A stretch of DNA of 32,000 nt from contig CP060262.1 of assembly GCA_022646745.1 (NCBI GenBank), forward strand, positions 360,001-392,000. Reading direction: 5' to 3'. The notes under the pieces are model-generated. The model searched no databases, was not told where the DNA came from, and saw only the letters and a program-made list of their open reading frames with translations. Numbering within the stretch: the stretch's first letter is position 1; the number at the start of each line of letters is the position of its first letter. The translations under genes and the position numbers were made by a program. This document shows, in pieces, positions 3,623-28,349 of the stretch. Source of the DNA: Planctomycetales bacterium. Its GTDB lineage: Bacteria; 4484-113; JAFGCY01.

Positions 3623-6253
3623 TCAGAAATCGCCGCGGTTGTAGGCCTCATCCTGCACCGTCACCGTATTGCCATCCGTGTTAAATGTGAGCCCGTGCCA
3701 GCTCTGGTTCGCTCCGGCCAGGCCGCCTTCCATTGCGTAGGTACCACCGGCAGGTCCGGCAATAGTTATCTGAGTCACACGGATCACGTTCATGGACAGT
3801 ACAGGTGCGTCCATCATGATGTGGTAAACGCCGGGGTGCACGACCGCCACGGTGACGACGATGCTTCCCGTGTGGGATTCATCATCACCGTTGTACTGCG
3901 TACGGTCCTCCCACAGTGCATACGGTTCGCCAGCCAGGCTGCCCGGGCTGTTGCGGCTGACCCAGGTCGTGCCCTGGTCCGTCGTCATTGCCATGTAGGG
4001 CTTGTACTCGTAGCTGCGCGGGACCATGTTGCTCTCGAAGCGCCCCTCCCATTCCACGGTGAAGCGCAGTTGGCCCTCGGGCAGCGGCTCCTCGCCCTGC
4101 AGCAGCCAGAACGTTCCGGGCTCCTCCAGGTTGTTGGCAACCCAGATGTGCACCTCGCGGTGGGTGTAGGGATGGTACTGCAGTGAGCGCGCCAGCACGA
4201 CGAATTCGTTCGCCCCCTCCCTGAGCGGGACCGTCAGGCTGAAGTCGCCGCTCACCGGCAGCTTGCCGCCCACCATCTCACGTCCCGGCAGGCGTGTGTT
4301 CCAGAAGTACAGCTCGTCAACCAGGTAGTAGCTGCTGTCAACATGCCCGCTGAGCGTGACCTGCTCCTCCTCCACCCGCTGCCCGGCGCTGTAGCCGTCA
4401 ATGTTGACACTGGCCGCCTCATAGCCGCCGAAGGGTGGCTCAGCCGTCGCGTCCAGCAGGATGTTCTCGAAGTCCTCCAGCATCGGGATCGAGCCGTCAC
4501 CCATCAGGCGCAGGTGCTGCTTGTCCGTGCCGAAGTAGTAGTTGCGTGTGGCCTGCGGGTTCGCCGGGTCAAGCATCATCACGGTGTTGCCACTGTATGC
4601 ATAGGCCAGGCAGAGGGTCGATGGCCCGGCGGCTGGTTTCAGCAGGCAGAGCACCGGCCCGCCGCTGCGGCGCATTGCCAGCTTCAGCTCCTCGAAGGCA
4701 CGCTGGTCATCGCGGTCCGCATCACTGAGCGACCAGTTGTTGCCAAGCAGATAGGAGGTGGTGGCGCGGGCGATGATCTTCTGCTGCACCCGCGGGTCCG
4801 GGAAGCGGCTGCCCAGCGGCCCGAGGCTCTCCCGGTAGCTGTTGAAGTACCAGGCGGTGAAGGCCAGCCTGCCGAGGGATTCAAGGTCCATCCAGGCGAA
4901 GTTCGGCGGGACGTTGAAACCATCCTCGCGTGGATTGAATCCGGTGCTGTAGCGGACCCGCTCGTTGTTGAAGCGGTCGTCGAAGTTCTCCATCACCAGC
5001 CACATGATGCACTGGTAGCTGCCACTGGGCTGCCAGCCCGAGGAGGCGGACACCGAGTGCACGCCGCTGCCGGGATAGAGCGCGTGGAGCTCAAACTCCA
5101 GCCAGCCAGCGGCATAGTCGGCTGCCGTCACGTTCAGCGGCACCATCTGCCCATCCAGCCTGGCCAGCAGCGGCTGCACCGCCAGCCTGTCCTGCGGGTC
5201 AAACCAGGCGCGCACCGTGATTGGCAGTGCCAGGTTGACCGCCTCGGCACTGGAAATGTAGTAGAGGTCCCCGCCGAGGTCCTCGCCATTGAGCTGCACG
5301 CTGCCGCTCACACTGCCGACGCTGATCTCCATCGCCGATTCCAGCGCTCCGTCCGGAATGCTGACGGACAGCGGGCCAAAGCCCCTGTCCGGCCCGTTGA
5401 CACTGCCGCCACCCGGCCCGATGATGATGGTCTCAGAGGCCGTGGTGCCACTGTGCTGCAGGACGGCCGGCCCGCAGTTCAGCAGGCAGTCGCCGGCCAG
5501 GCCCTCGTTGTCAGTGCGGTCAAACGGCCGTACCTGGTACCAGGCATGTTCGCGGGTCTGCAGCTCGTACTGCAGTCGTTCGGTCAGCTGCACCGCCGGC
5601 AGCTCAAGCTCGCCGACCAGCTCCCAGGGCCCGGCCTCCCCCTGCGAGCCGTAGATCCGGTAGCCCGCCACCGTCGTGCCGTAGTTCACGCCGATCGGTG
5701 TCACGTCGGCGATGTTCACCTCGCCGTTGCCATCCCCATCCGCCCGGCAGGACTGCAGCCAGCCAGGGTCGCCGAAGCGGTGCTGGTAGTGCAGCCCGAT
5801 CGGGGTCAGGTCTGCGATGTTCACCTCGCTGTTGAGGTCATAGTCACCGCAGCTCAGGTAGCTCCAGCTCAGGAGCCAGCCCTCGCTGTCGGACCCGCTG
5901 AGCAGCAGGTCGTGGATCTCATTGCTGCTGCCCAGCGGGGCACGCAGGGCACTGCGCCCGCAAAGCACGCGCAGTAATTCGCCGCGCAGATCCTCAAACA
6001 CCGCGTTGTCAACGCCTGCCGGGACCGGGGCGGCTTCGATCTCTGCCCGGACGGCTGCGTCCGCCGGTACAGCCGGGGACGTGCCAGCCGATGAACCCCC
6101 GGAGCAGGCCGTGAGCAGCATTGCCAGCAGGATCAATGCCAGTGATGAAAGGGCTGGCGGGACAGGTGTCCCGCCATCGCAGGGGCCGTCCGACAGGGAA
6201 GTGGCGCATTGCCCAACCCTGTCCGGTGCAGTGCGGAAGTGTTGCACAGACAT
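3623..6253 (-). CDS. Large lipoprotein with a duplicated dockerin-like Ca-binding segment and an uncharacterised C-terminal region of about 600 aa
   Basis: 876-aa ORF. ATG 6251-6253 is preceded by GGGAGGAAG (reverse complement of 6257-6265). Hydrophobic stretch plus lipobox LLTAC-SGG. Dockerin-like pair GDYDLNSEVNIADLTPIGLHY ... DGDGNGEVNIADVTPIGVNYG at nt ~5677-5850. The 544-aa plus-strand ORF 4343-5977 is R/A/G/H-rich shadow sequence. Confidence 0.8.
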   Translation of the reverse strand: MSVQHFRTAPDRVGQCATSLSDGPCDGGTPVPPALSSLALILLAMLLTACSGGSSAGTSPAVPADAAVRAEIEAAPVPAGVDNAVFEDLRGELLRVLCGRSALRAPLGSSNEIHDLLLSGSDSEGWLLSWSYLSCGDYDLNSEVNIADLTPIGLHYQHRFGDPGWLQSCRADGDGNGEVNIADVTPIGVNYGTTVAGYRIYGSQGEAGPWELVGELELPAVQLTERLQYELQTREHAWYQVRPFDRTDNEGLAGDCLLNCGPAVLQHSGTTASETIIIGPGGGSVNGPDRGFGPLSVSIPDGALESAMEISVGSVSGSVQLNGEDLGGDLYYISSAEAVNLALPITVRAWFDPQDRLAVQPLLARLDGQMVPLNVTAADYAAGWLEFELHALYPGSGVHSVSASSGWQPSGSYQCIMWLVMENFDDRFNNERVRYSTGFNPREDGFNVPPNFAWMDLESLGRLAFTAWYFNSYRESLGPLGSRFPDPRVQQKIIARATTSYLLGNNWSLSDADRDDQRAFEELKLAMRRSGGPVLCLLKPAAGPSTLCLAYAYSGNTVMMLDPANPQATRNYYFGTDKQHLRLMGDGSIPMLEDFENILLDATAEPPFGGYEAASVNIDGYSAGQRVEEEQVTLSGHVDSSYYLVDELYFWNTRLPGREMVGGKLPVSGDFSLTVPLREGANEFVVLARSLQYHPYTHREVHIWVANNLEEPGTFWLLQGEEPLPEGQLRFTVEWEGRFESNMVPRSYEYKPYMAMTTDQGTTWVSRNSPGSLAGEPYALWEDRTQYNGDDESHTGSIVVTVAVVHPGVYHIMMDAPVLSMNVIRVTQITIAGPAGGTYAMEGGLAGANQSWHGLTFNTDGNTVTVQDEAYNRGDF

Positions 6254-6307: not shown

Positions 6308-6400
6308 AACAGATGATACCGCCAATCACGGGAAATGTGCGGGCCGCACGGAAAATCAATTCACCTGCTGGCTCAGTGCTGCCGGGTGTGTCTGTCTTAG

Positions 6401-6688: not shown

Positions 6689-6698
6689 GCCCCTTCGT

Positions 6699-6704: not shown

Positions 6705-6710
6705 CTGTAC

Positions 6711-10773: not shown

Positions 10774-10952
10774 CTCAGTGGTCGGAAGTCAGTGGGCAGA
10801 AGCAGAATGAGAATGAGAATCAGAAGAAGAATCAGAATGAGGGGCAGGTTGGGAACCTTATGACTGACAACTAAGTTCTGCTGCTTCTGCTTCTGCTTCT
10901 GCTTCTGCTTCTGATTCTCTCCCTGACCACTGACCACTGGCTACTGACCACT
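10774..10952. repeat. Nested word palindrome A-B-centre-B'-A', same architecture as 2689-2844, including (CTGCTT)5
   Basis: A is 10774-10799, CAGTGGTCGGAAGTCAGTGGGCAG. B is 10800-10842, GAGAAT/CAGAAG/CAGAAT hexamer words. The centre is 10843-10875. B' is 10876-10922, with exact (CTGCTT)5 at 10881-10910. A' is 10923-10952, CTGACCACTGACCACTGGCTACTGACCACT. Confidence 0.85.
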
Positions 10953-10982
10953 AAAAAAAAAACGCCCCACCGAAGCGGGGCG
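10953..10982 (-). terminator. Intrinsic terminator of the rpsF-rpsR-rplI operon
   Basis: The minus strand reads CGCCCC-GC(TTCG)GT-GGGGCG followed by T10 (A10 at 10953-10962 on the plus strand). It has a 6-bp GC stem and a C(UUCG)G-type loop, about 70 nt downstream of the rplI stop. Confidence 0.8.
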
Positions 10983-13154: not shown

Positions 13155-14117
<963 letters not shown>

Positions 14118-14118
14118 G

Positions 14119-15297
14119 ATGCGCATCCTGCTGCGAGCATGCATCCTGCTGACCTGCCTTGCTGCCACATGGCTGGCGGGCAGTGTGCAGGCGACCGCGG
14201 CACCGAGCAACCTCTACTTCATTGACGACTTCAGCGGCGAAAGCGGCACCTATTTCTACAGCGGCCAGCTGGACGAGCGCCGCTTCGGCTATGACAAGGG
14301 CCAGTACCGCATCGACACCAGCGGCAGCGAGGCCTACGGCCAGAGCGTGCTGCTGGAGGACCTCGAGGAGTACAGCGTGGAGGTCAGCGCGCAGCTCCTG
14401 GACTCCAGCGACAAGGACGGCGGCGGCTTCGGCATCAGCTTCAACTACAACGAGCGCCAGGGCGGCTCGGACTTCATGCTGTTCCTGATCTACAACCGCG
14501 GCGCCTTCGCCGTGCTGCGCTACAAGGATGACAAGACGAGCGTCGTCACCAGCCCGCAGCTGACCGACCTCGTCAAGCCCGGCAAGCCCGTGCAGCTCGG
14601 GGTTGACAACACCCGCGGCCAGCTGACCTTCTACATCAACGGCGTCGAGGTGCATTCGCTGAAGGAGACGCAGCTCACGCGCGGCGGCTTCGGGATGTTC
14701 GCCACCCGGCGCAGCCTGGTGCAGTATGACGACTTCAAGGTGTTCGCCGACCGCCCGACGCCAAAGATTTTCAAGGACGACTTCTCCACAGATGCCAGCT
14801 TCTACAAGGGCAGCTATGGCGAGGTGGAGTACTACTACCGCGACAAGCGCTACTACATCAACACGCTGGACACGCAGTACATCGGGCTCTCGCCCTTCCC
14901 GGAGAAGGCGATGAACTTCGACCTCAGCGTCGACGTGGAGCTGGTGCAGGGTGAGCCGCAGGGCGGCTACGGGATCTACATCCGCGACTGGGAGACGGGG
15001 GGAGGCGGCTTCAACCAGTTCCGCTTCCTGGTAGCCGACGGCTGGTACGCGATTGAGCAGAGCGTGGAGGACCGCCCGCTGGCGCTGTCACAGTGGACGC
15101 AGCATAGCGCGGTGCGCCTGACTGGGGTGAACCGCCTGCGGGTGGTGGCCCAGGATGGGAAGCTCAGCTTCTTCATCAACGGGGTGGAGGTCTACAAGCA
15201 CACCGACGACATGCCGCACATGGGCGACTTCGGCCTGTATGCGGCGGGGGGCGTCGAGGTGGCGTTTGACAACCTCGAATTTCTGCCGCTGCAATAG
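14119..15297 (+). CDS. Secreted protein with two tandem jelly-roll (concanavalin/LamG-like) domains, function unknown
   Basis: I prefer ATG 14119 (MRILLRACILLTCLAATWLAGSVQA, a signal peptide) over the listed GTG 14107, which would overlap the upstream gene. Internal duplication: both halves share DDFS...Y...G.Y.I, GG.GI, G.L.F.INGVEV and ..D.F.V. The fold assignment is by pattern only. Confidence 0.7.
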   Translation: MRILLRACILLTCLAATWLAGSVQATAAPSNLYFIDDFSGESGTYFYSGQLDERRFGYDKGQYRIDTSGSEAYGQSVLLEDLEEYSVEVSAQLLDSSDKDGGGFGISFNYNERQGGSDFMLFLIYNRGAFAVLRYKDDKTSVVTSPQLTDLVKPGKPVQLGVDNTRGQLTFYINGVEVHSLKETQLTRGGFGMFATRRSLVQYDDFKVFADRPTPKIFKDDFSTDASFYKGSYGEVEYYYRDKRYYINTLDTQYIGLSPFPEKAMNFDLSVDVELVQGEPQGGYGIYIRDWETGGGGFNQFRFLVADGWYAIEQSVEDRPLALSQWTQHSAVRLTGVNRLRVVAQDGKLSFFINGVEVYKHTDDMPHMGDFGLYAAGGVEVAFDNLEFLPLQ

Positions 15298-15412
15298 TGG
15301 TCAGTAGTCAGTGGTCGGTGGTCAGATTGCCCTGCCAACTGCTTGATCCCTTGATACTTTTTCAGTGTTAGAGAAAGCCAGCCTATATCAGTGGTCAGTA
15401 GTCAGTGGTCAG
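15297..15412. repeat. Two direct GTGGTCA/GTAGTCA heptamer arrays (15297-15325, 15389-15412) flanking a 63-nt spacer
   Basis: GTGGTCAGTAGTCAGTGGTCGGTGGTCAG begins inside stop codon TAG 15295-15297. CAGTGGTCAGTAGTCAGTGGTCAG is at 15389-15412. The inverted partner is at 15869-15895. Confidence 0.85.
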
Positions 15413-15428: not shown

Positions 15429-15812
15429 CTAACCCTTCTGGTTACCAGGCATTGAAGCAGCAACCTTATTCCTGACTGAGTAAAGCAATCTGCAAGTCTC
15501 GTCCAACAACCTGTAGGCATCAGCAAGGTTTCTGCCGGAAACGTAGCCAAGCTTCTGGGAAACAAACAATAGCGTGTCCAGCTCCCTTGCGGATCCCAAA
15601 GCCATTGAAAGAAAGTGGGCGTAGTCCCTGGCTGTTGACCTCGCATTGCCCTCAGCGATGTTTGCCGGAATTGACACTGCAGCTCTTTGGATCTGTGAAC
15701 TAATTCCATAAATTTCCCGGCGAGGGAATCCTTCCGTCAGGCCATAAACCGACTCAACCAGCTCAACAGCCCTCTGCCATACGATCAAATTCCTGTGGGA
15801 TGCCTTTGTCAT
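15429..15812 (-). CDS. Four-helix-bundle protein (23S rRNA intervening-sequence protein / Avd-like family)
   Basis: 127 aa from ATG 15810-15812. The sequence NLIVWQRAVELVESVYGLTEGFPRREIYGISSQIQRAAVSIPANIAEGNARSTARDYAHFLSMALGSARELDTLL matches the conserved pattern of this family (W..A..L...vY..t..fP..E.y.l.sQirRAa.SI..NIAEG..r.s..d...fl.iA.GS..El.t.l). It is visibly lower in GC than the flanking genes. The upstream ATGs in the ORF track lie beyond the predicted promoter. Confidence 0.85.
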   Translation of the reverse strand: MTKASHRNLIVWQRAVELVESVYGLTEGFPRREIYGISSQIQRAAVSIPANIAEGNARSTARDYAHFLSMALGSARELDTLLFVSQKLGYVSGRNLADAYRLLDETCRLLYSVRNKVAASMPGNQKG

Positions 15813-15821
15813 AACAAATGA

Positions 15822-15850
15822 ATAGTACAATAAATATTGACTTCTGTCAA
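15822..15850 (-). promoter_or_regulatory. Sigma70-like promoter of the four-helix-bundle gene, giving a near-leaderless transcript
   Basis: The minus strand reads TTGACA (reverse complement of 15845-15850), 17 nt, then TACTAT (reverse complement of 15822-15827), then 9 nt to the ATG. The -35 is embedded in the palindrome ATTGAC-TTCT-GTCAAT. Confidence 0.5.
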
Positions 15851-15868
15851 TCATTTTTTTGTCTTTAT

Positions 15869-15895
15869 TGACCACCGACCACTGACCACTGACCA
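15869..15895. repeat. TGACCAC heptamer array, inverted partner of 15297-15412
   Basis: TGACCACCGACCACTGACCACTGACCA is the reverse complement of the GTGGTCA word family. Together with 15389-15412 it brackets the four-helix-bundle gene and its promoter. Confidence 0.85.
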
Positions 15896-16017
15896 AACGA
15901 AAGTTACTTCCGAGCAGTCAGTATTCAGTACGGAGGTGCCGTAAAATGAATCTTTTCGAGCATCCGACTTTCCTTTGGGTAGAATTAAAACAGCCAGGTA
16001 ACCAAGGCGGAGACTGA

Positions 16018-16815
16018 ATGACCAAGCGATTTTTCCTGACAGCCATCACCGGCATCCTGCTGCTGTTCGCGCTCGCATCCTGCGGCGGCGGCGGTGGCTC
16101 ATCCAGCCAGGTCAGCGTGACCGCGATCAACACCGGCGGCGGTTCGATCTCCGCCGGCAGCGTGGTGCCGCTCAGTGCCACCATCAGCGGCGGCAACGGC
16201 CAGGTGATGCTCAAGAACTGGACCGTCAGCGCCGGCAGCCTGATGCTCAACCCGCCGGACTTCAGCCTGACCCTGCGTGCGACTGCCAAGTCCACCTCCG
16301 AGACCTCCGTCAGCACCACCGGCCCGACCGTCTACTGGGTCGTGCCCGCCACCGCCGGCACCGCACAGATCAGCGTGACCGTCGAGGGTGCCTCGCGCAC
16401 GCTGGACGTTACCTACGGCGCCAGCCCGGTGACGCTTGCGGTGAACAGCGGTTCCAACGGCCAGCGCATCGTGACCGTCAGCGCCAGCAACATCTCCGAC
16501 CTGTTCGGCGCGGCCTTCCGCGTGAACTACAGCGATGGATACACCCCGGTCAGCGTTGAGGCCGGCGACTTCCTCGGCCCCGCCAATGAGATCCTGTTCC
16601 TCGGGCTGGCCAACCAGGCGGACTTCGTCCCGGTGGCAATCACCCGCAAGAACGGTGCCAGCGGCAAGGACGGCAGCGGCGTGCTGGCGACGATCACCTT
16701 CCAGCCGGCCAGTGGTTCCAGCTCCGCGAAGGGTGCCAGCCAGGCCGAAGGCTTCGACCTGAGCTCGCTGTTCTTCATCGATTCGACCTACGCCCGCATC
16801 CAGCTCGACAACTGA
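16018..16815 (+). CDS. Lipoprotein with an Ig-like region and a C-terminal cohesin-like domain
   Basis: 265 aa. SD-like GGCGGAG lies 7 nt before the ATG. Signal plus lipobox LFALAS-C-GGGGGSS. The C-terminal segment VTLAVNSGSNGQRIVTVSASNISDLFGAAFRVNYSDGYTPVSVEAGDFLGP...KDGSGVLATITFQP fits the cohesin domain pattern. The minus-strand ORF 16099-16851 is shadow. Confidence 0.8.
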   Translation: MTKRFFLTAITGILLLFALASCGGGGGSSSQVSVTAINTGGGSISAGSVVPLSATISGGNGQVMLKNWTVSAGSLMLNPPDFSLTLRATAKSTSETSVSTTGPTVYWVVPATAGTAQISVTVEGASRTLDVTYGASPVTLAVNSGSNGQRIVTVSASNISDLFGAAFRVNYSDGYTPVSVEAGDFLGPANEILFLGLANQADFVPVAITRKNGASGKDGSGVLATITFQPASGSSSAKGASQAEGFDLSSLFFIDSTYARIQLDN

Positions 16816-16827
16816 GCCAGCGGCACG

Positions 16828-17502
16828 ATGCCAGTCATCCTGATCCGCCACGGCCAGAGCGAAGGCAACTTAAAACGCATCTTCCAGGGCAGCCTGGACT
16901 ACCCGCTGACGGAGCTCGGCCGCGACCAGGCGCGCAGCGTCGGCAAGTGGCTGGAGCAGCGCGGCCTGCACTTCGACACCGTCTACAGCTCCCCGCTCAG
17001 CCGGGCCCATGAAACCGCACGCATCCTCGGCGGGCAGACCGGCAATACGGAGATCCAGGCGCACGACATGCTGCGTGAGATCCACGGTGGCGAGCTGGAG
17101 GGCCTGACACATGAGCAGTGTGTGGAGAAGTTCCCGGCCTACGCCGAGCGCAAGCTGCCGGAGGGTGCGGACTTCAAGAATTACGGCGGCGAAAGCTATG
17201 CGGAGGTCAATGTCCGCATCATGCAGTTCATTGAGTTCATCCAGCAGCGGCACAGCGAACCGGACAGCATCCTCATCGTGGCCCATGGCGGCACGCTGTA
17301 CCAGCTGTTCAAGCGCTGGTGCGGCTGGCCGGTGCCTACACACTTCTTCGTCGGCATGAGCAACTGCGTGATGATCTGCCTCGAGCAGCGCGAGGTGCTC
17401 GGGCACCTCGGGGCGCAGCTGAAGTGGATGCTGCCGATGGAGCTGCTGGACAATTCGCTTACCACCGAATGGCGCCTGGCCGATTCCCCCGCCGAGGAAT
17501 AG
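16828..17502 (+). CDS. Histidine phosphatase family protein (phosphoglycerate mutase-like)
   Basis: 224 aa. The N-terminal LIRHGQSEGN contains the catalytic RHG motif, and VAHGGTL is the second His motif. Confidence 0.85.
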   Translation: MPVILIRHGQSEGNLKRIFQGSLDYPLTELGRDQARSVGKWLEQRGLHFDTVYSSPLSRAHETARILGGQTGNTEIQAHDMLREIHGGELEGLTHEQCVEKFPAYAERKLPEGADFKNYGGESYAEVNVRIMQFIEFIQQRHSEPDSILIVAHGGTLYQLFKRWCGWPVPTHFFVGMSNCVMICLEQREVLGHLGAQLKWMLPMELLDNSLTTEWRLADSPAEE

Positions 17503-17523
17503 ACCGCGGGTTAGAATCAGGGT

Positions 17524-17955
17524 ATGGATCACACGCAGGCCCAGCCGGCGGACAACTGGAGCGAACAGGACTTCCCGGTGCTCGGCTACCGCACCAGCCC
17601 GGTATTCTTCGTTGCCGACGTGGAAGCGAGCATCGCCTTCTACCGCGACCGGCTCGGTTTCGCGCTGCAGTCCAGCTATGGCAATCCGACCTGCTTCGCG
17701 ATCGTCCGGCTGTGGGCCGCAGCGCTGATGCTTTCGAAGCCGGAGCAGCTCAGCGGGCATAGGCCGGCCTTTTCGCTGGACAACTTCAGCTGGGATGCGC
17801 ACATCCTCGTATCCGATGCCCGCGCCTACCATGATTTCTGTGTTGCCAACGGAGCGGAGATCGCAAGCGGGCTGGTGGAAGCGCCCTACGGCATGCTGGA
17901 GTTCGTCGTGCGTGATCCGGACGGCTACGGCATCTGCTTCGGGCAGAACCTCTGA
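17524..17955 (+). CDS. VOC family protein (glyoxalase/bleomycin-resistance fold)
   Basis: 143 aa. VFFVADVEASIAFYRDRLGFAL and FVVRDPDGYGICFGQ are typical paired beta-alpha-beta-beta-beta module signatures. Confidence 0.8.
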   Translation: MDHTQAQPADNWSEQDFPVLGYRTSPVFFVADVEASIAFYRDRLGFALQSSYGNPTCFAIVRLWAAALMLSKPEQLSGHRPAFSLDNFSWDAHILVSDARAYHDFCVANGAEIASGLVEAPYGMLEFVVRDPDGYGICFGQNL

Positions 17956-18026
17956 TCCTGCACAGCTGTTAGCGGGCGCTGGCAGCGGGTATAAAGCACG
18001 GACCACGCGTGGTCCGGGGAGCTGAC

Positions 18027-20405
18027 ATGAGATACGGCAGACAGATGATCGCCATGCTGCTTTGCGCAGTGCTGGCCCTGGCATCCTGCGGCGGCAATGC
18101 ACGCCCAGGCGATGCAGCGCTGGAAGCAGCAGTGTCCCCGCAGGCCACACTCAGGCTCGACGGACTGGAGCTGCTGGATGGCAGCATGCTGGACGAAGCA
18201 GGCTCCCGTGGCATCAGCGTGCAATGGTCCGATGTCAATGGCCAGCCCGTGGCCAGCATCCTTGCCGAGGGCGTGCAGGACCTGCGCGCGCTGTACTTCT
18301 CTCTTGAGCATGACAATACCCTGCAGGCCGGGGCATTCACGGCCGGCGACTGGGCGGCTGGCAACAGCCTCAGCCTGGCCCTCACTCCAGAGGCAGGGCA
18401 CAGCGAGGCCGGTATTGTGCTTGTCAATCCTGAGGGTGGCGATGGCTTCAGCGGCAGCGGGGTGCTGGCAACGCTTGCCTTCGATGCAGCTGGCAGAAAC
18501 CCCAAATCCGCCAGTGCTGCGCCGAACACGGAAGCCTCGCGCATGCAGCTCTACTTCGCGCCCGACTTCGGCCTGCTGTACTGGTACTACCGCAACCAGG
18601 GTGACTATGACCAGAACGGCGAGGTGAACATCTCCGACCTGACCCCGCTGGCAATCCACTTCGGCAAGGCCGCCGCCGGCGGAAGCTTTGACTTCACGAA
18701 GGTCGAATCCGTGGTGGACGGCGATGGCAACGGGGAGATCAACATTTCCGACATCTCACCGATCGGCGCCAACTTCGGCAACTCCGTGCAGGATTTCAAT
18801 CTCTATTTCGGCACGATGGTTGACTACCCCGCCAACCCCGGCGACACGCCGGGCGGGCTGGAGATCGAGAGCTGGCCGCTGGCCGATGCATCGGGGGAGG
18901 CTGCCTCCCAGCGGCTGTACTTCACGAAGCAGCTGCCGATCATGGTCCCGGTGGCCAGCGGGCTGTGGCTGCATCCGGTCAGCGGCAGCTCGATCGGCAT
19001 CGCCAGTACCTCAGTCGGCTTCGGCAACCAGTCGCCGCAGGTCCAGCTGCAGGCGGCACCGCTCACCGGAGTGGCCCCGTTCAGTGTCAGCGCGGATGGC
19101 AGCGCATCCAGCGACCCCGATGGCGACCCGCTGTCCTACACCTGGGTGTTCGGTGACCTGACGGCGCTGTACACCAGTGACGCCCTGTACAACCCGGCTG
19201 ACATGGGAGCGCAGTTCAGCGTGGACGTGGAGGCGGGGGGCGAGTACGTGCTGATCCTGATGGTGCGCGACCCGCAGGGCGCAGTGGCCTTCCAGGTGCA
19301 GGATGTGGTGGCGGTTGACAGCGCCGGCTGGCAGATCCGCGAGTTCGACGTGACCGGGAACCACCCCACGCTGGAGACGATCTTTGACGTGGACGTCTGC
19401 GAGGTGGCCGGGCTGCCGACGATCGCCTACGCCTACAAGCAGGGCGCCACCGGCGGGCACGTCTACCTGCTGCAGGGGGATTCCCTGTTCGATGGCGACT
19501 GGGACATTGACAATTTCGTTTACGGGCAGAGCGGCACGGACTTCTGCGAGGTGGCGGTGGCTGAGATTGACGGTACTGCGGCTGTGGCGGCGTCCTACGA
19601 CCGCGGTGGCAACGGTGAGGCGGTGTTCGCGCGCCAGGTCGAGAGCGGCGGGACGGACATGTACAACACCGTGCTGTTTGAGCAGTCCACCGGCGCGCTC
19701 AGCGGGGTCGACCTGGCGAACATCGACGGGCAGGCGATGGTCGCCTACCGCAACAATGCCACAGGTGAGCTGCGCTTCTGCGTGGCGATTGACGACAGTG
19801 CGCAGAACTTCGTCGGGCCGTTCAATGTCGGCATCACCGGCGCCCCGAGCTCGCAGATCTGCCTGGCGGAGGTGCAGGGTGCACCGGCCTTCAGCTACTG
19901 GGCCGGGCCATCCAGCAACCGCCTGCGTTACCACACCGCGGTGATGAACGGCCCGCTGCCGGTGTTCAACAGCGGCACCACGCTCGCCGTACTGACCAGC
20001 TGCTACCTTTCCGATGCACTGATCGTCAGGGAGGATGGCAGCCCCTCGGTGCTGTTTGACATCCCGGTGAACACGGCGATCTACGGCCTGCGCGCCGCCG
20101 ACCCGCAGGCCTCGATGTGGACCGCCGACGGCGAGATCTCGCAGCAGGGTGCGGCGATCGGCGAGTACTGCGCCGGGATGCATGGCGGCCGGCCGGCGAT
20201 CCTGTGGTACGACTTCCTCACCGCCGAGCTGTACTACCAGCGCGCGGCGGATGCCGATGGCACCAGCTGGGAAGCTGCCGTGCTGGTTGACGACAGCCTC
20301 GCACTGGGCACCCGGCCCTGCATGGCGGAAGTACTCGGCGTGCCGGTGATCGCCTACATCGACAAGGGCCGCAACATGATCTGCTACGGGATATACGTGG
20401 AATAG
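18027..20405 (+). CDS. Lipoprotein with cohesin-like, dockerin-like, PKD-like and Asp-box-variant propeller regions
   Basis: I prefer ATG 18027 (MRYGRQMIAMLLCAVLALAS-C-GG lipobox) over the listed GTG 18009. Cohesin-like segment at ~18130-18500 (..SGSGVLATLAFDA). Dockerin-like pair GDYDQNGEVNISDLTPLAIHFG / DGDGNGEINISDISPIGANFG at ~18598-18783. PKD-like segment (APFSVSADGSASSDPDGDPLSYTWVFGD). C-terminal ~50-aa repeats with G.P.IAY...L.Y.RAADADGTSW. Confidence 0.8.
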   Translation: MRYGRQMIAMLLCAVLALASCGGNARPGDAALEAAVSPQATLRLDGLELLDGSMLDEAGSRGISVQWSDVNGQPVASILAEGVQDLRALYFSLEHDNTLQAGAFTAGDWAAGNSLSLALTPEAGHSEAGIVLVNPEGGDGFSGSGVLATLAFDAAGRNPKSASAAPNTEASRMQLYFAPDFGLLYWYYRNQGDYDQNGEVNISDLTPLAIHFGKAAAGGSFDFTKVESVVDGDGNGEINISDISPIGANFGNSVQDFNLYFGTMVDYPANPGDTPGGLEIESWPLADASGEAASQRLYFTKQLPIMVPVASGLWLHPVSGSSIGIASTSVGFGNQSPQVQLQAAPLTGVAPFSVSADGSASSDPDGDPLSYTWVFGDLTALYTSDALYNPADMGAQFSVDVEAGGEYVLILMVRDPQGAVAFQVQDVVAVDSAGWQIREFDVTGNHPTLETIFDVDVCEVAGLPTIAYAYKQGATGGHVYLLQGDSLFDGDWDIDNFVYGQSGTDFCEVAVAEIDGTAAVAASYDRGGNGEAVFARQVESGGTDMYNTVLFEQSTGALSGVDLANIDGQAMVAYRNNATGELRFCVAIDDSAQNFVGPFNVGITGAPSSQICLAEVQGAPAFSYWAGPSSNRLRYHTAVMNGPLPVFNSGTTLAVLTSCYLSDALIVREDGSPSVLFDIPVNTAIYGLRAADPQASMWTADGEISQQGAAIGEYCAGMHGGRPAILWYDFLTAELYYQRAADADGTSWEAAVLVDDSLALGTRPCMAEVLGVPVIAYIDKGRNMICYGIYVE

Positions 20406-21191
20406 GGAGCAGGGAGCAGAGAGCTGAAAGCAGGGAGCAGGTTGGAGCTACCCGCTTCAGCGGTAATAACTCGCTTTGCTCGGTTAACATCGAGGTAGGT
20501 ATGCAGCGGTTATCCTGAGCGCTAAGGCGCGAAGACGCGAAGGAAAAGAAGACTTGGCAGACTCATTGCTCACTCTTCATTGCTCATTGCTTCGCTGCAT
20601 GCACTCCCAAGCGCACGCAGCGTGCGCCGCTACGTTGCTTTCATTCGAGAGGCAAAACATTATTGCCAATCTTCTCCGCGCCTCACTAAAACTCTGCGTC
20701 TCCGCGTCAAAAAAACCGGACTGGCGAGCACGAAGCTTCTCGCGCGGCTGCGTGCCACGCATCGGCTCGCTACACTCGGGCACTATGAGGAATCCATGCG
20801 AAGGTTTTGTCAACGCGGAGTCGCGGAGGAAGTCGGAGGTGCGCAACTTGTTTGCGCACAATGGAACGCCTCACATAAGCTCGGGTGACAGCGAGGAAGC
20901 ATTCCCGGTTTTCTTTAACACAGAGATTCACAGAGTTCCACAGAGGAATTCAATGTTCGTCAGGCTCATTGCTCACTCTTCATTGCTCATTGCTTCGCGG
21001 CATGCATACCCATTCGCTGCAGGGGACGTTCCGTCGGTGTCTGTGTTTTCTTCGTGTCTTCGTGACTTCGTGGTCAGTCCAGTGCTGTCATGGTCACGAA
21101 GGCACGAAGCGCAATCTGCTTGTTGCCAGGCCAGACTGCCATGCGGAATTCCTGGCATGCACTCCCAATTGCGCCGGGGGCGCACCGCTAC
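20406..21191. repeat. ~780-nt non-coding mosaic of shared repeat modules
   Basis: Modules in order:
- GGGAGCAG array, 20405-20445
- GCTAAGGCGCGAAGACGCGAAGGAA, 20521-20545
- CATTGCTCA array, 20562-20590
- GCATGCACTCCCAA-hairpin-CGCTAC, 20597-20633
- CTTCTCC..TCCGCGTCAA..GGCGAGCA module, 20671-20756
- CGGAGGTGCGCAACTTGTTTGCGCACAATG, 20834-20864
- CACAGAG array, 20919-20946
- second CATTGCTCA array, 20965-20993
- inverted TTCGTG arrays, 21048-21073 and 21092-21112
- second GCATGCACTCCCAA-hairpin-CGCTAC, 21155-21191
The ORF-track entries here (20554-21375, 20885-21499 and others) translate repeat words. Confidence 0.8.
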
Positions 21192-21607
21192 ACCCCGACC
21201 GGCTGAGCTGCCTTCCCGTTGCCCATTCCATTCAGCCCGGCCAGTCCCTTCTCGGCCAGCTTTGCCAGCTCAGCCCTTTCCCACTCCGGGAACAGCCAGT
21301 CCGGCAGGCCCTTCAGGCAACGCAGGATGCTCGAGAGTTCGCTGGCCTTCTTCACGTTGCCAAGCTGCTCATTGAGCTTGTGGCGGATCAGCGAGGCCAT
21401 TTCCTTCACCCCCATGCGCTGGGCCAGCTGGTGGTGCTGCTTCATGCGGCGCAGCAGGTTGTGCTGGTCCTTGAGGATGGCGTGGGTCTCCGTGTCTGAG
21501 AAGCCGGCGGCCTTCAGCCCGGCCTGGTCCATGTTGCCTGAGCTGATCAGGCACCAAAGCAGCGCACGGATACAGGGGTCGTCATGCAGTTTCTGGCAAA
21601 GATCCAT
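21188..21607 (-). CDS. Small hypothetical protein (139 aa), possibly a helix-turn-helix protein
   Basis: I prefer ATG 21605-21607, preceded by GGGAGAGG (reverse complement of 21613-21620), over the listed upstream start. The segment LISSGNMDQAGLKAAGFSDTETHAILKDQ loosely resembles the HTH of phage small-terminase-like proteins (..gN..qAa..AGyS...a). The resemblance is weak and unverified. An AT-rich promoter island lies upstream. Confidence 0.55.
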   Translation of the reverse strand: MDLCQKLHDDPCIRALLWCLISSGNMDQAGLKAAGFSDTETHAILKDQHNLLRRMKQHHQLAQRMGVKEMASLIRHKLNEQLGNVKKASELSSILRCLKGLPDWLFPEWERAELAKLAEKGLAGLNGMGNGKAAQPVGV

Positions 21608-21670
21608 TTTGTCCTCTCCCTGCGGGTCGGCCGGAATATGAATGCACAACCCACACTATCTACTACACAA

Positions 21671-21698
21671 AAATTACCATAAATATTAAATCTGTCAA
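21671..21698 (-). promoter_or_regulatory. Sigma70-like promoter of the 139-aa gene
   Basis: The minus strand reads TTGACA (reverse complement of 21693-21698), 16 nt, then TAATTT (reverse complement of 21671-21676). It shares TTGACAGA...AATATTTAT.GTA with the promoter at 15822-15850. Confidence 0.4.
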
Positions 21699-21752
21699 GT
21701 TTTTGCAAGGTTAATTGCTTGCTTTGTCATCCGCACCATAGCTTCGCCAGAT

Positions 21753-21782
21753 TTGACAGCAGGCAAACAGAAAGGGTATACA
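21753..21782 (+). promoter_or_regulatory. Sigma70-like promoter of the first tandem lipoprotein gene
   Basis: TTGACA at 21753-21758, an 18-nt spacer, TATACA at 21777-21782, then AAGGAA 7 nt before ATG 21810. The whole block is duplicated at 24556-24612. Confidence 0.5.
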
Positions 21783-21809
21783 TCGGGCATCTCCTGAAAG
21801 GAATATCCG

Positions 21810-24539
21810 ATGACTGCTTACTGCCTGCGAGTGCTGCCTGCCGGCCTGCTTGCTCTGCTTCTCGCCTCTTGTGGAGGATCCACAACGTCCCAGAGCCCCG
21901 CTTCCCTGCATGAAGCGGCATTGGAGCTGCCTGAGATGGCCGGAATTCAGTGGCCTGCGGAGCTGCCTGCGGATGCCCTGCAGCCCTGGGAACGGGAGGC
22001 CAGCGGCATCAGCGCGGAATCCGAATTCCTGCCGGGGCGCGAAGCCTTCAGCAGCAGCCTGGCGGGTGCCAGCGAGAACGGTGAGGCCACGCGGCTGGAA
22101 AGCAGCACAGGCCAGTCCGCATGGGCGAGCTACCGGATCCCCACGGGCGGCGAGGCCCCGGGAGTTCTATCACTCGACGTGAACCTGCTGGCGCCAGATG
22201 CAGGTGGTGCATCGGAATACTTCGTCGGGCTGGCAAACTACGGCACGGGCCGCTGGCAGTGGCGCGGGCCATTCTCCGACAGCCATGTGCGCCTTGCCCT
22301 GCCGGACAGCGGAATGCTCAGCCCGGTAAACAGCTTCTTCGCCACTGTGCTCTGCCACAGGGGCAGCCGGATTGACATCGTGGGACTTGGCCTCGGGATG
22401 CGGATTGCCGACGACAGCACAGCGCCGCCAATGCCAATCGCCCTGACCGCCACGCCCGTGGCCGGCGGTGCCGAATTGCAGTGGTTCCCCGTGCTTTCAG
22501 GCGACCTGGCGGGCTATGAGCTCTTCTGGGCCGGGCAGTCCTTCAGCAACCCGCAGTCCGCCGGAGTGCGTAACCTTGGCTACATCGAAGGAAGCACGCA
22601 CACGGTGCTCAGCGGACTGGGCGGCGAGACATTCCTGCGCATTCGCTCCGTGGACCTGAATGGCAACGCCAGTGAACTGTCGGACGAGGTTTCCTTCACA
22701 GCACTCGCCGGCTCCGGGCCCAGCCTGCTTGTCAGTGCGGGATCCGCCAGTGCCGGGCTTGGTGAGGCGGTCAGTGTCAGCGTGAGCGGGGCCGAAAGCT
22801 ACGACTACGACACGGATGGCAACGGTGATTTCGACATCACGGCTGACAGCTCCGGCAGCTTCAGTGTGGACACCAGCCGCCCAGGCATCATCCGCCCACG
22901 CGTGCGCGCCAGCGGCAGCGGTGGCGAAGCGGTGGCCCTGGGCTCGGTCAGCCTGATCGTCACCAGCAACTCGCGGCCCGTTGCCAGCGCCACGGCGGAC
23001 CCGCAGAGCGGCCTGGCGCCACTGGACGTGACATTCACGGGTGAGGCCGAGGATGCCGAGGATGAGCAAAGCGCGCTGGAATTCGCCTGGGACTTCGACG
23101 GTGACGGCATCTTTGAAGTGGGGACCGATACGCTGACGCCTCCGCTGCAGAACTATGCGTCCGCGGGCATCATCAACGCCAAGCTGCGGGTGACCGACAG
23201 CCAGGGTGCCTGGGACGTTGACACGATCTCCATCCTGGCAACGGATGGCGGTGTCCATGCCGAACTGGCAATGGCACAGAGCCTGATCGGCAAGGGCGAG
23301 TATGCCATCTTCAGCGCGGAATCCAGCACTTCCTCGTCAATGATCACCAAGTATGAATGGGACCTGGACGGCGACCTGGTTTTCGAACTGGACACGGGCT
23401 TGGACCCGCTGCTGAAGCGGAGCTTTGACACGGTCGGCTTCCAGCAGGTTGCGCTGCGGGTCACGGATGACCTGGGCCGCTTCGATATTGACATTGACAC
23501 GCTGGTGGTGGAGGGCTGGTCCGACCCGGCGGACGTACCCGGGACCACCGGTAGCTTCATCAGCTACAGCACAGAGGTGGCCGGCTTCCCGGCCATCAGC
23601 TATGGGAACTCAGGAACGAACCAGATGATGTTTATCCGGGCCCTGGACTGGCAGGGAACCGCATGGGGAACACCAGTCGGAATCGGGGAACCGGGGCTTG
23701 ATGTGTACTATCCCCGGATGATCATCGTCAATGGCAACCCGGCGGTGGTCTACAGCGGCATCTCGGACGAACAGCTGCACTACGTACGTGCGCTGGATGC
23801 TGAAGGCAGCAGCTGGGCGGCCCCGATGGTTGTCACGACGGATGTCAGTGAGTCGGACATCAAGGGCCTGATCGTCGCTGACGGCAACCCGGCCATCAGC
23901 TACAAGCGCAAGAGTGACGGCGCCCTGATGTACGTCCGGGCGGTCAATCCGGAGGGCAGTGCGTGGAGCGCGCCGCTGGTCGTGGACAACAGCACCTCAT
24001 ATGCCGGCAGTGACATGGAGATAGTCAACGGGCGTCCCTGCATCGCCGCACGCAAGCAGAGCCCCAGCGAGCTCCACTGGTTCAGGGCGGCGAATCCGCA
24101 GGGCAGCTCCTGGGGCGCAGCGGTGGTGGTTGACGATGTCAACGTGGCGGGCCTGTATGCCGACATCGTGGTCACGGGCGGGCGGCCGGGGATATTCTAC
24201 CTTGACAATGACACCATCAAGTGGGTCATGTTCTGCATTGCTTCCGACATAAATGGATCTGCCTGGGAAACGCCGGTGCAGCTTGACAATGGCAGCAATG
24301 CCAACTCAAACCATGGAGCAGCGGTGATAGACGGCCGGCCGGCCGTCGGCTACAAGAATCCCGCCTTCGGCACGATGTTCATCCAGGCCAAGGATGCCCT
24401 GGGAAGCGATTGGGAAGCGCCGCAGGTCGTGATCCCGGCGGAACATGGCTTTCCCCACATGTGTGCCGTGGCTGACAGGCCTTTCGTTGTGATCGCGGGT
24501 AACAGCGGCAGCCTGACTTTCACTAATTTCAGACCCTAG
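21810..24539 (+). CDS. Large lipoprotein: unknown N-domain, FN3-like, PKD-like repeats, C-terminal 6-7-blade Asp-box-variant propeller
   Basis: 909 aa. Signal plus lipobox LLLAS-C-GGS. FN3-like segment (PIALTATPVAGGAELQWFPVLSGDLAGYELFW...LRIRSVDLNGNASELSDEV). PKD-like segments (LAPLDVTFTGEA...FAWDFDGDGIFE...AKLRVTDSQGAWDVD and YEWDLDGDLVFE...VALRVTDDLGRFDID). C-terminal repeats of ~50 aa with G(N/R)PA(I/V).Y...L.Y(V/I)RA.(D/N)..G(S/T).W..P. Confidence 0.85.
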   Translation: MTAYCLRVLPAGLLALLLASCGGSTTSQSPASLHEAALELPEMAGIQWPAELPADALQPWEREASGISAESEFLPGREAFSSSLAGASENGEATRLESSTGQSAWASYRIPTGGEAPGVLSLDVNLLAPDAGGASEYFVGLANYGTGRWQWRGPFSDSHVRLALPDSGMLSPVNSFFATVLCHRGSRIDIVGLGLGMRIADDSTAPPMPIALTATPVAGGAELQWFPVLSGDLAGYELFWAGQSFSNPQSAGVRNLGYIEGSTHTVLSGLGGETFLRIRSVDLNGNASELSDEVSFTALAGSGPSLLVSAGSASAGLGEAVSVSVSGAESYDYDTDGNGDFDITADSSGSFSVDTSRPGIIRPRVRASGSGGEAVALGSVSLIVTSNSRPVASATADPQSGLAPLDVTFTGEAEDAEDEQSALEFAWDFDGDGIFEVGTDTLTPPLQNYASAGIINAKLRVTDSQGAWDVDTISILATDGGVHAELAMAQSLIGKGEYAIFSAESSTSSSMITKYEWDLDGDLVFELDTGLDPLLKRSFDTVGFQQVALRVTDDLGRFDIDIDTLVVEGWSDPADVPGTTGSFISYSTEVAGFPAISYGNSGTNQMMFIRALDWQGTAWGTPVGIGEPGLDVYYPRMIIVNGNPAVVYSGISDEQLHYVRALDAEGSSWAAPMVVTTDVSESDIKGLIVADGNPAISYKRKSDGALMYVRAVNPEGSAWSAPLVVDNSTSYAGSDMEIVNGRPCIAARKQSPSELHWFRAANPQGSSWGAAVVVDDVNVAGLYADIVVTGGRPGIFYLDNDTIKWVMFCIASDINGSAWETPVQLDNGSNANSNHGAAVIDGRPAVGYKNPAFGTMFIQAKDALGSDWEAPQVVIPAEHGFPHMCAVADRPFVVIAGNSGSLTFTNFRP

Positions 24540-24555
24540 CAAGGCCTGCAACCAT

Positions 24556-24585
24556 TTGACAGGGGCAAAGCAGAAAGGGTATACA
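24556..24585 (+). promoter_or_regulatory. Sigma70-like promoter of the second tandem lipoprotein gene (duplicate of 21753-21782)
   Basis: TTGACA at 24556-24561, an 18-nt spacer, then TATACA at 24580-24585. The TTG start used by the ORF track at 24556 is the first three bases of this -35 hexamer. Confidence 0.5.
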
Positions 24586-24612
24586 TCAGGCATCTCCTGC
24601 AAGGAATATCCA

Positions 24613-27473: not shown

Positions 27474-27498
27474 CGCTCCTTGGTATCCGTAGTAGCTG

Positions 27499-27530
27499 CC
27501 GGTTCCGGCTTGCACCGGAACCGGTTTTGC
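27499..27530 (+). terminator. Candidate intrinsic terminator for the 24613-27429 gene
   Basis: CCGGTTCCGG-CTTGCA-CCGGAACCGG (perfect 10-bp stem, 27499-27524) followed by TTTTGC. Confidence 0.65.
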
Positions 27531-27560
27531 TTGCCGCCTCCCCAGGCAGGCAGTGGTTCC

Positions 27561-28085
27561 TTAGTTGAAGTAGTCCTTCTGGGCCTTCGCCACCAGCTCC
27601 ACCACCTCGTCCACGTAGCTCGGGCCGTTGGTGTCGCAGGTGCCGATCAGCTTGCCACCCTTGCCGAGCACCACCGTGGTGGGCCAGCCGTCACGCTTGT
27701 ACAGCTCGCTGAACTGGCCATCGCCGTCGATCACGACCGGCATGCTCAGGCTGCGGCTGTCCATGAAGCGCTGGGTCTCGCGCTCAGAGCTGTCGACCGA
27801 GTACATCAGGAAGTTGACCGCCTTGCCGTCCAGCTTGCCGTACAGGTTCTTGACGTAGGGCATGTGGCGCTGGCAGTGCGGGCACTCCGGGCTGAAGATG
27901 TGGAACACCAGCGGGGCTTCCGCGGTGAGGGCCTCGAGGTCCATCGTCTCGCCACTGAACATCTCAGTCGCGGAGAAGGAGTAGTCGCTGCCCCGGGCAG
28001 CCTCGGCACGGTTGATCCCGAGGGCCATGACCATCGCCAGGCCCATCAGGCTCATCATCAGTTTCAGAATGTTCGTCGATCGCAT
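27561..28085 (-). CDS. Secreted TlpA-like thioredoxin-fold thiol:disulfide oxidoreductase
   Basis: I prefer ATG 28083-28085 (MRSTNILKLMMSLMGLAMVMALGINRAEA), preceded by AAGGAAGG. CPHC active site within FSPECPHCQRHMPYVKNLY. Confidence 0.8.
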   Translation of the reverse strand: MRSTNILKLMMSLMGLAMVMALGINRAEAARGSDYSFSATEMFSGETMDLEALTAEAPLVFHIFSPECPHCQRHMPYVKNLYGKLDGKAVNFLMYSVDSSERETQRFMDSRSLSMPVVIDGDGQFSELYKRDGWPTTVVLGKGGKLIGTCDTNGPSYVDEVVELVAKAQKDYFN

Positions 28086-28349
28086 ATCACGCCTTCCTTT
28101 TTCCAAACCAGATGTGTTACCCGGCTGGTGGCACTGCGAAACAGTACCGCGCCAGATTCTGGCTTTCGATATGGATATTCCGAACTACACCTATATGTCA
28201 CCTTAGACCGGTGGGGCTAAAGTCTTGTTCCAGAGCGGGGTGCGGCGCTGGGAGATGGAATGAGGCGGATATGGGCCAGGGCTGCGCGCAAACGCGATCA
28301 AGCCAAAGCAATCTCAGTGGGGATGATCAATGAGAAGAAATGAGGAAAA

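Follow-up and report, generated by a model that had tools for sequence, protein, structure and literature searches.

A 32,000-nt stretch from a Planctomycetales bacterium (assembly GCA_022646745.1, contig CP060262.1, positions 360,001 to 392,000; hereafter the window), with a G+C content of ~62%, encodes three predicted lipoproteins that carry cohesin and dockerin modules. With modest confidence, we regard them as three members of a lineage-specific, non-cellulosomal cohesin–dockerin system, in which all partners would be lipoproteins and their pairing would depend on calcium. The three proteins are Coh265, a 265-aa lipoprotein with a C-terminal cohesin (16018..16815, plus strand), a 792-aa lipoprotein that combines a divergent cohesin-like module with a dockerin (18027..20405, plus strand), and an 876-aa probable lipoprotein with a dockerin (3623..6253, minus strand). 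When 273 six-frame open reading frames (ORFs) were scanned with hidden Markov models (HMMs) of relatives, the window proved to contain no more than two cohesin-like modules and two dockerins, all of them confined to these three proteins. The system is cellulosome-like in its parts, not in its layout or cargo.

The cohesin lipoprotein Coh265

Coh265, as described by its translation, an orthologue alignment, Pfam matches, an AlphaFold2 (AF2) model and Foldseek comparisons, begins with a signal peptide and a lipobox, LASC, whose cysteine is residue 22 of the translation (nt 16081-16083, plus strand). A short Gly-rich tether leads to an Ig-like domain (aa ~33-134), which is followed by the cohesin module (aa ~135-254; 16420..16779, plus strand). 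Residues 140-235 match the Pfam Cohesin family (PF00963) with an E-value of 9.6e-5 and 23.0 bits, 1.1 bits short of the gathering score of 24.1. An orthologue search returned 40 matches, 37 of which were aligned together with the window protein (n=38; 40-80% identity). Pfam Cohesin is matched at E<=0.01 by 23 of these 38 sequences, with a best E-value of 7.9e-10, and 26 alignment columns are invariant, namely Cys22 and 25 others. There is one copy of Coh265 in the window and one in each related locus.

The AF2 model of Coh265 has a predicted local distance difference test (pLDDT) score of 83.4 and contains the N-terminal Ig-like domain (aa 33-134) and an all-beta C-terminal domain, whose strands span aa 138-254 at pLDDT >90. 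The best single-domain Foldseek matches of this model are solved cohesins: 2xdh (template modelling (TM) score 0.66, root-mean-square deviation 3.4 over 132 columns), 2jh2 (TM 0.64-0.65) and 5nrk_A (TM 0.65). Further matches include 4uyp, 3ul4 (3ul4_A) and many type I and type II cohesins at a probability of 1.00. Judged by its model, the Coh265 cohesin thus superposes on solved cohesins and adopts their flattened beta-sandwich (jelly-roll) fold.

Comparisons with PDB at the sequence level gave two candidates that were rejected: antibody heavy chains, matched by the whole of Coh265 at E ~0.004-0.06, were discarded as compositional or Ig-like noise, and ebulin, matched by the orthologue profile at E 0.03, was discarded as spurious. 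The link to cohesins rests on the Pfam matches of the orthologues and on the fold comparison. These two lines bear out the original prediction, made from the DNA sequence of the window, that the 265-aa lipoprotein with the LASC lipobox ends in a cohesin.

The 792-aa lipoprotein combines a cohesin-like module with a dockerin

The 792-aa protein was taken from the gene call; in the ORF list it starts at a GTG codon at position 18009. Its lipobox LASC (Cys21) is followed, in this order, by a cohesin-like module, a dockerin, an FN3-like domain, a PKD domain and a series of ~50-aa propeller-like repeats. The cohesin-like module (aa ~45-175; 18159..18551, plus strand) has no direct match to Pfam Cohesin. 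It aligns with the Coh265 cohesin over 84 columns in hhalign (probability 97.3%, E 1.9e-11), and HMMs of the two modules find each other with E-values of 5e-8 and 3e-9. An AF2 model of the N-terminal 333 aa (pLDDT 87.1, predicted TM (pTM) score 0.79) reaches pLDDT >90 over all three of its domains, with ~45 disordered residues at the N-terminus. The best Foldseek matches for this part of the protein are again cohesins, 2w1n at the top followed by 4fl4_B, 2xdh and 2jh2, with TM scores of 0.41-0.52 that are weaker than those of Coh265. By these sequence comparisons, the N-terminal module is a divergent cohesin-like module, homologous to the Coh265 cohesin. The relative P0074 matches Pfam Cohesin as well; this match falls in a second, C-terminal cohesin (aa 375-470), outside the N-terminal module, and was therefore not counted in its support. 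Thus, the second cohesin-like segment of the original prediction stands, and for both segments the modelled fold is closest to cohesins. Its placement two genes downstream of Coh265 needs correction, as the gene is the third downstream, with two unrelated genes in between.

The dockerin, together with a preceding Trp-containing strand, occupies aa ~185-255 (18579..18791, plus strand) according to Pfam, conservation and the AF2 model, the dockerin proper being aa ~191-252 (nt ~18597-18782). It consists of two 22-residue segments, each a calcium loop plus a helix, DYDQNGEVNISDLTPLAIHFGK and DGDGNGEINISDISPIGANFGN, which lie 16 residues apart and have the calcium loops DYDQNGEVNISD and DGDGNGEINISD. 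The two segments are 59% identical to one another; symmetry of this kind is associated with a dual binding mode in the dockerins characterised so far, and by inference this would apply here as well. The match to Pfam Dockerin_1 (PF00404) scores 14.0 bits (E 0.061), the gathering score being 22.9. The top matches among PDB sequences are the dockerins 4fl4_A and 2y3n_B, neither of them significant (E 0.046 and 0.33). In the AF2 model, helices 202-211 and 240-248 directly follow the two loops and a short linker helix spans residues 226-230, all at pLDDT >94. The predicted structure accordingly has a helix after each loop, in a three-helix arrangement.

Invariably found downstream of the dockerin is a beta domain (aa ~256-320; 18792..18986, plus strand) with AF2 strands at residues 256-319 and pLDDT >90; it has no Pfam match, and the label FN3-like denotes fold resemblance only. 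The PKD domain (aa ~334-428; 19026..19310, plus strand) matches Pfam PKD_4 at E 6.2e-8, above the gathering score, as the original prediction had it. The C-terminal region (19389..20402, plus strand) consists of repeats of the type G-x-P-A-h-x-Y ... D-x-x-G-x-x-W with a spacing of 50-53 aa, which produce staggered phmmer matches in locus L010. The repeats have no sequence match in NCBIfam, Pfam or PDB. The propeller proposed for this region therefore retains a single support, the ~50-aa sequence repeats, by which the region is probably a beta-propeller.

The same dockerin in the 876-aa protein

The 876-aa protein has a lipobox, LLTAC (Cys50), followed by a helical spacer, a dockerin, an FN3-like domain and ~600 aa of cargo of no recognised family; searches of this cargo against NCBIfam, Pfam and PDB gave no identification. 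Its dockerin (aa 129-195; 5669..5869, minus strand) is matched by the family dockerin HMM at E 8e-27, in agreement with the original prediction that this protein has the same dockerin pair as the 792-aa protein; Pfam Dockerin_1 has no match in it. Its calcium loops are DYDLNSEVNIAD and DGDGNGEVNIAD. At the DNA level, the dockerin region is 74-79% similar to nt 18573-18780 of the 792-aa gene, and the internal duplication is preserved at 86% identity between positions 5681-5729 and 5786-5834. Two orthologues with 57% identity, P0079 and P0080, keep both the lipobox and the position of the dockerin.

A further protein from another sample, P0081 (649 aa), is 99% identical to the 876-aa protein over 42% of the latter, a stretch in which both lipobox and dockerin are included. 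Its precomputed Pfam matches further comprise TraG/VirD4-type coupling-protein domains (PF10412, PF02534 and PF12696), and it is thus either an assembly chimera or the product of a conjugative element inserted into an 876-aa-type gene.

A family of lipoproteins with N-terminal dockerins

With the N-terminus of the 792-aa protein and the 876-aa protein as queries, ~90 relatives were recovered. Their dockerin modules were checked for two ~22-residue segments with 12-residue calcium loops carrying Asp or Asn at positions 1, 3, 5, 9 and 12. Among 95 non-identical modules, which are numerous and nearly uniform in sequence, these ligand positions are 82-100% conserved in both segments, and the duplicated calcium-loop signature of dockerins is evident from the alignment. 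Pfam Dockerin_1 is matched at E<=0.01 by 12 of 29 relatives of the 792-aa protein, and the aligned modules of P0043, P0046, P0052, P0067 and P0075 score 25.1-37.1 bits, above the gathering score. The ligand conservation, the helices after the loops and the scores of these relatives together corroborate the predicted dockerin next to the cohesin-like segment, and with it the claim that one protein, the 792-aa lipoprotein, holds both modules. At the level of Pfam profiles, the cohesin and dockerin assignments stand through orthologues and relatives and not through the window copies, which at 23.0 and 14.0 bits remain below gathering.

Among the ~90 relatives, the dockerin always follows the lipobox within aa ~45-290, and the C-terminal cargo is variable. 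We further searched 1.84 billion representative proteins exhaustively with a 161-aa query consisting of the Trp-containing strand, the dockerin and the FN3-like domain. This search returned 1,719 proteins at E<=0.001; E-value cut-offs of 1e-10 and 1e-30 leave 898 clusters and 23 proteins, respectively. The system is thus much larger than the window would suggest, and the dockerin and the FN3-like domain are conserved together as one unit. The unit lies within the first ~380 residues in 149 of the 150 best matches. Architectures were counted in 135 new representatives. A lipobox-like motif is present in 105 of them, and 70 have a cohesin-like module, which stands directly upstream of the dockerin in 68 cases. 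The median start of the dockerin is aa 186 in the 70 proteins with a cohesin-like module vs. aa 100 in the 65 without it. At least two dockerins occur in 29 of the 135 representatives, and an additional cohesin-like module downstream of the dockerin occurs in seven. Judged by these sequences, an N-terminal dockerin beside the predicted lipid anchor is a family-wide rule across ~230 relatives. The mature protein would start at the lipidated cysteine, continue with a helical spacer in some members and a cohesin-like module in others, and carry the dockerin–FN3-like unit ahead of the cargo.

According to Pfam, the cargo consists mainly of PKD domains and beta-propellers. Rarer types include clostripain, subtilases, DUF3466, AhpC/TSA, multihaem cytochromes and a single GH5 domain, found in one (P0099) of the 54 proteins that the 876-aa query recovered; a few relatives have ChitinaseA_N and Sde0182_C domains. 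In P0130, P0124, P0097, P0129 and P0099, the N-terminal dockerin unit is joined to multihaem cytochromes, an AhpC/TSA peroxiredoxin domain, subtilases and GH5, and the unit therefore serves redox and hydrolytic proteins besides those with PKD domains and propellers.

Predicted lipoprotein anchoring

Lipoproteins were recognised by motif only, as [LVI][ASTVI][GAS]C together with a conserved cysteine. Coh265 and the 792-aa protein have LASC after a hydrophobic region, and the 876-aa protein has LTAC at Cys50. In the dockerin-family alignment, the lipobox cysteine is >=90% conserved and the residues before it vary, a pattern suggestive of a lipobox and not of a signal peptidase I site. By this sequence criterion, all three proteins look like lipoproteins.

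This result bears on the mechanism initially proposed for the window, in which a lipid-anchored cohesin would tether dockerin-bearing cargo. Because the dockerin proteins have a conserved lipobox of their own and would anchor themselves, a model in which secreted cargo is tethered does not fit, and any pairing would be one between two anchored proteins.

Genomic context and distribution of Coh265

Orthologues of Coh265 were found in 13 species-level genomes. Relatives come from activated sludge and sediments, and the related metagenome-assembled genomes (MAGs) bear the depositor labels 'UBP7' or 'Planctomycetales bacterium'. One of them, labelled 'UBP7 HKST-UBA03', originates from Shatin activated sludge (PMC8495973). 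The current GTDB phylum UBP7, described at 35-53% GC (PMC11382960), was considered and is a poor fit to this lineage of 62% GC.

The four plus-strand genes at 16018-20405 are separated by gaps of 12, 21 and 71 nt. Between the genes of Coh265 and the 792-aa protein lie a histidine phosphatase (16828-17502, plus strand; Pfam His_Phos_1, E 2e-50) and a protein of the glyoxalase/bleomycin-resistance fold (17524-17955, plus strand). Coh265 is located upstream of the 792-aa gene in three relatives with ~78% identity (loci L007-L009, one of them from the 'UBP7 HKST-UBA03' genome); both intervening genes are retained in L008 and L009, and the phosphatase gene in L007. Ribosomal protein L9 is encoded near Coh265 in the close relatives. 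Among the Coh265 orthologues with 34-54% identity, no dockerin gene was found within 10 kb, except in L016 and L017, so that both module types occur together in the window and in L007-L009, L016 and L017. Several dockerin proteins can stem from one MAG; IIA79, for example, has at least five of them and a Coh265 orthologue (IIA79_08700). A conserved cohesin–dockerin operon was rejected, although the four genes are co-directional with small gaps, because the arrangement is restricted to the ~78%-identity relatives.

In the distant loci L011, L013, L014 and L016, the neighbours of Coh265 are genes for a DUF3108 protein, a LamG/3-keto-disaccharide-hydrolase-like protein and a histidine phosphatase. 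The same neighbours are present in the window at 13167-15297 and 16828-17502, where the LamG/3-keto-disaccharide-hydrolase-like protein is a secreted protein of 396 aa, and they may hint at the process to which Coh265 belongs. Coh265 is therefore a conserved gene with lineage-wide neighbours, not one half of a conserved two-gene cassette. It should be noted that the missing linkage is no argument against distant partners, because cellulosomal dockerin genes are scattered as well.

In addition, a gene of the 23S rRNA intervening-sequence protein family (15429-15896, minus strand; PF05635, E 2e-34) is found on the opposite strand just upstream of the Coh265 gene and holds its place beside it in L007-L009.

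Proposed function and alternative explanations

In the system that we favour, each dockerin would use its two calcium-loaded helix segments to bind the beta-sheet face of a cohesin, supplied either by Coh265 or by the cohesin-like module of a second family member. Within one membrane, diffusing lipoproteins would thereby become paired or chained into defined clusters, with Coh265 as the common receptor; two-module proteins would serve as adaptors or form chains, and proteins with a dockerin only would be the chain ends. The outcome would be the organisation of binding or enzymatic cargo on the envelope, and not the retention of secreted enzymes. Such pairing or chaining is inferred, and the geometry is compatible with it: Coh265 would rise above its anchor by a single Ig-like domain, and the dockerins would lie 50-170 residues away from theirs. 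Moreover, a conserved Coh265 with kept neighbours and many near-uniform dockerins fits the pattern of one receptor with many ligands. A precedent for self-association is Amy4 of Ruminococcus bromii, whose cohesin binds its own dockerin to give multimers (PMC4611034).

A bolder form of this proposal, which we put forward tentatively and consider possible though on balance doubtful, is that the N-terminal dockerin–FN3-like unit is a docking tag on dozens of lipoproteins per genome, read by Coh265 and by the cohesin-like modules of the same chains. It would amount to a previously undescribed two-dimensional sorting, display or arrangement of lipoproteins on the envelope of these uncultured bacteria.

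Several observations weigh against pairing. The window's own modules are below both Pfam gathering scores, and the Coh265 gene is unlinked to dockerin genes in its ~50%-identity orthologues. One cohesin cannot scaffold many partners at once; with a single cohesin and both partners anchored, the benefit of one-to-one pairing is unclear. The pTM of 0.79 means that the cohesin-like, dockerin and FN3-like domains of the 792-aa protein are perhaps one rigid unit, and in the model the cohesin-like face could be occupied within its own chain. Finally, we know of no demonstrated cohesin partner for the dockerin-like modules of other non-cellulosomal organisms.

The strongest competing explanation, which we hold to be unlikely, dispenses with a cohesin partner. 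The dockerin–FN3-like unit would serve as a stalk stiffened by calcium, or as an element for sorting or spacing, and the cohesin folds would be generic beta-sandwiches that bind, for example, glycans or the cell wall. As expected for a spacer, the unit is always found between the lipid anchor and the cargo, and half of the family has no cohesin-like module. The separation of the Coh265 gene from dockerin genes in distant relatives agrees with this explanation too, as do its conserved neighbours, the LamG/3-keto-disaccharide-hydrolase-like protein and DUF3108. What speaks against it is that the full duplicated dockerin signature is kept, and not calcium loops alone, with relatives passing the Pfam Dockerin_1 threshold, and that genuine cohesin homologues share genomes and even polypeptide chains with the dockerins, for which chance offers no easy explanation.

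The compact model of the 792-aa N-terminus suggests a second alternative, limited to the two-module proteins. Here the cohesin-like domain would pack on its own dockerin to form a rigid pedestal, and only Coh265, if any, would act on other proteins. The pTM of 0.79 and the high pLDDT over three domains, reached despite the disordered N-terminal residues, are in line with such packing, as is the short structured connection between the cohesin-like module and the dockerin, which contains a strand with the nearly invariant Trp186. Yet this strand is also present in members that have no cohesin-like module, including the 876-aa protein, so that it belongs to the dockerin/FN3 unit and not to a cohesin–dockerin interface. 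We consider the pedestal quite unlikely.

Action between cells, with the cohesin on one cell and the dockerin on another cell, be it partner or prey, would lead to aggregation or adhesion in flocs and biofilms. The origin of the relatives from activated sludge and sediments suits this explanation, PKD and propeller cargo is typical of adhesins, and cohesin/dockerin proteins have been proposed as adhesins in consortia that anaerobic methanotrophic archaea (ANME) form with sulfate-reducing bacteria (SRB) (PMC10553843). The modules, however, are poorly placed to reach another cell, since the dockerin is nearest to the membrane, under 500-700 residues of cargo, and Coh265 rises only one Ig-like domain above its anchor, which makes an intercellular role very unlikely.

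A classical cellulosome or other polysaccharide-degrading scaffoldin system, for which the GH5 of P0099 and the ChitinaseA_N and Sde0182_C domains of a few relatives could be cited, is hardly credible: HMM and Pfam scans of the window revealed single cohesin modules only and no multi-cohesin scaffoldin, carbohydrate-binding module (CBM) or glycoside hydrolase, no tandem cohesin arrays were seen in relatives, though some have two cohesin-like modules, the cargo is overwhelmingly PKD domains and propellers, and the dockerins are N-terminal on lipobox-anchored lipoproteins, not C-terminal on secreted carbohydrate-active enzymes (CAZymes), with neither S-layer homology (SLH) domains nor sortase for anchoring. 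The original statement that no cargo domain looks like a glycoside hydrolase and that this would not be a cellulosome is thus upheld. Overall, every feature of the original prediction is found at its stated coordinates, and its interpretation is supported in part.

Comparison with known cohesin–dockerin systems

The OlpA/OlpC type of Clostridium thermocellum (3ul4 is the OlpA cohesin with Doc918) likewise has a single cohesin on a cell-anchored protein, and dockerin uptake without a scaffoldin is possible in it. OlpA is anchored to the Gram-positive wall by SLH repeats and binds secreted CAZymes with C-terminal dockerins, whereas the present cohesin would be held in place by a lipidated cysteine, and its candidate ligands are lipoproteins as well, with the dockerin at the N-terminus. 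The Archaeoglobus fulgidus cohesin 2xdh, the best single-domain structural match of Coh265, also comes from a non-cellulolytic setting, and a protein that combines the two modules has been reported in this species. It differs in being archaeal and in the small number of proteins, a handful; we know of no expanded family, N-terminal dockerin rule or lipobox context in A. fulgidus. In the GH84 toxin complex of Clostridium perfringens (2w1n, 2jh2, 2o4e), large multidomain proteins pair in a non-cellulosomal manner and a cohesin stands beside FN3 as well, but the proteins concerned are glycoside hydrolases secreted by a Gram-positive pathogen, not lipoproteins, and their family is not expanded.

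Among the Firmicutes, Ruminococcus bromii has in Amy4 a self-binding protein that combines a cohesin and a dockerin, and in Sca2 a surface anchor with a single cohesin that also takes up the dockerins of peptidases (PMC4611034). Its amylosome differs from the present system in GH13 amylase cargo, C-terminal dockerins and sortase anchoring. Metagenome-derived systems outside the Firmicutes with peptidase or adhesin-type cargo have been described in the Cloacimonadota 'Ca. Stygibacter' (PMC8542988) and in ANME and syntrophic SRB (PMC10553843). In the former, the dockerins are C-terminal, and a multi-cohesin scaffoldin of 3,755 aa bears a C-terminal domain of the type IX secretion system (T9SS) type (PMC8542988), and lipobox-anchored proteins with N-terminal dockerins are not described in either report (PMC8542988, PMC10553843). 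By analogy, the nearest functional counterparts may be the anchors of the OlpA and Sca2 types and the self-associating Amy4; judged by the models, the non-cellulosomal cohesins of A. fulgidus and C. perfringens are the nearest in structure. A literature search for dockerins in combination with lipoproteins or lipoboxes found no title or abstract pointing to a lipobox-anchored N-terminal-dockerin system, which is no proof of novelty. The architecture is unusual, and it is widespread in an uncultured lineage.

Other features of the window

Downstream of the 792-aa gene, the region 21751-27429 contains two tandem paralogous lipoprotein genes, coding for 909 aa (21810-24539) and 938/957 aa (24556/24613-27429), whose 5' halves are 79-86% identical in DNA sequence. 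Both proteins have FN3-like and PKD domains and ~50-aa propeller-like repeats as in the 792-aa protein, and neither has a dockerin or cohesin. The 1.4 kb between the 792-aa gene and this pair (20406-21809) has no convincing gene, holds several short repeats and is lower in G+C (0.587 in 20001-22000).

Two types of intergenic repeats were noted. A short repeat with the core GCTCATTGCTCACTCTTCATTGCTCATTGCT occurs in five copies at 6371-6699, 13326-13360, 20541-20614 and 20944-21017, includes a 148-nt tandem duplication (6371-6676) and gives rise to spurious ORFs such as 6630-7535 and 20554-21375. It has no Rfam match, and an Rfam scan of the window found nothing. The latter ORF and another at 27480-28220 were set aside as non-coding in appearance. 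Runs of 7/14-nt repeats of the CTGACCACTGACCACTG type are located between genes at 2802-2859, 7673-7702, 10923-10952 and 15868-15897, with an inverted copy at 15288-15325. Some of these runs are inverted pairs (10923-10953 and 15295-15325 are 94% complementary), and they may be REP-like or terminator-associated elements.

Implications

Cohesin–dockerin pairs are the textbook case of modular extracellular assembly and a standard tool of synthetic biology. To our knowledge, their partners and roles outside the cellulolytic Firmicutes are mostly unknown. The lineage described here offers a compact system, with a small conserved cohesin lipoprotein, a uniform dockerin adjacent to the anchor and many cohesin-like modules in the same chains as the dockerins. 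If the modules do not bind one another, the dockerin fold would additionally serve as a calcium-stiffened stalk, a second function that needs no partner, and thousands of 'orphan' dockerin annotations in metagenomes would have to be read differently. If they do bind, the pair would organise membrane-anchored proteins instead of capturing secreted enzymes, and would provide a new orthogonal pair for surface display. Should the dockerin unit indeed act as a docking tag, the cohesin–dockerin pair would have been repurposed in these bacteria from the scaffolding of enzymes to the organisation of membrane proteins.

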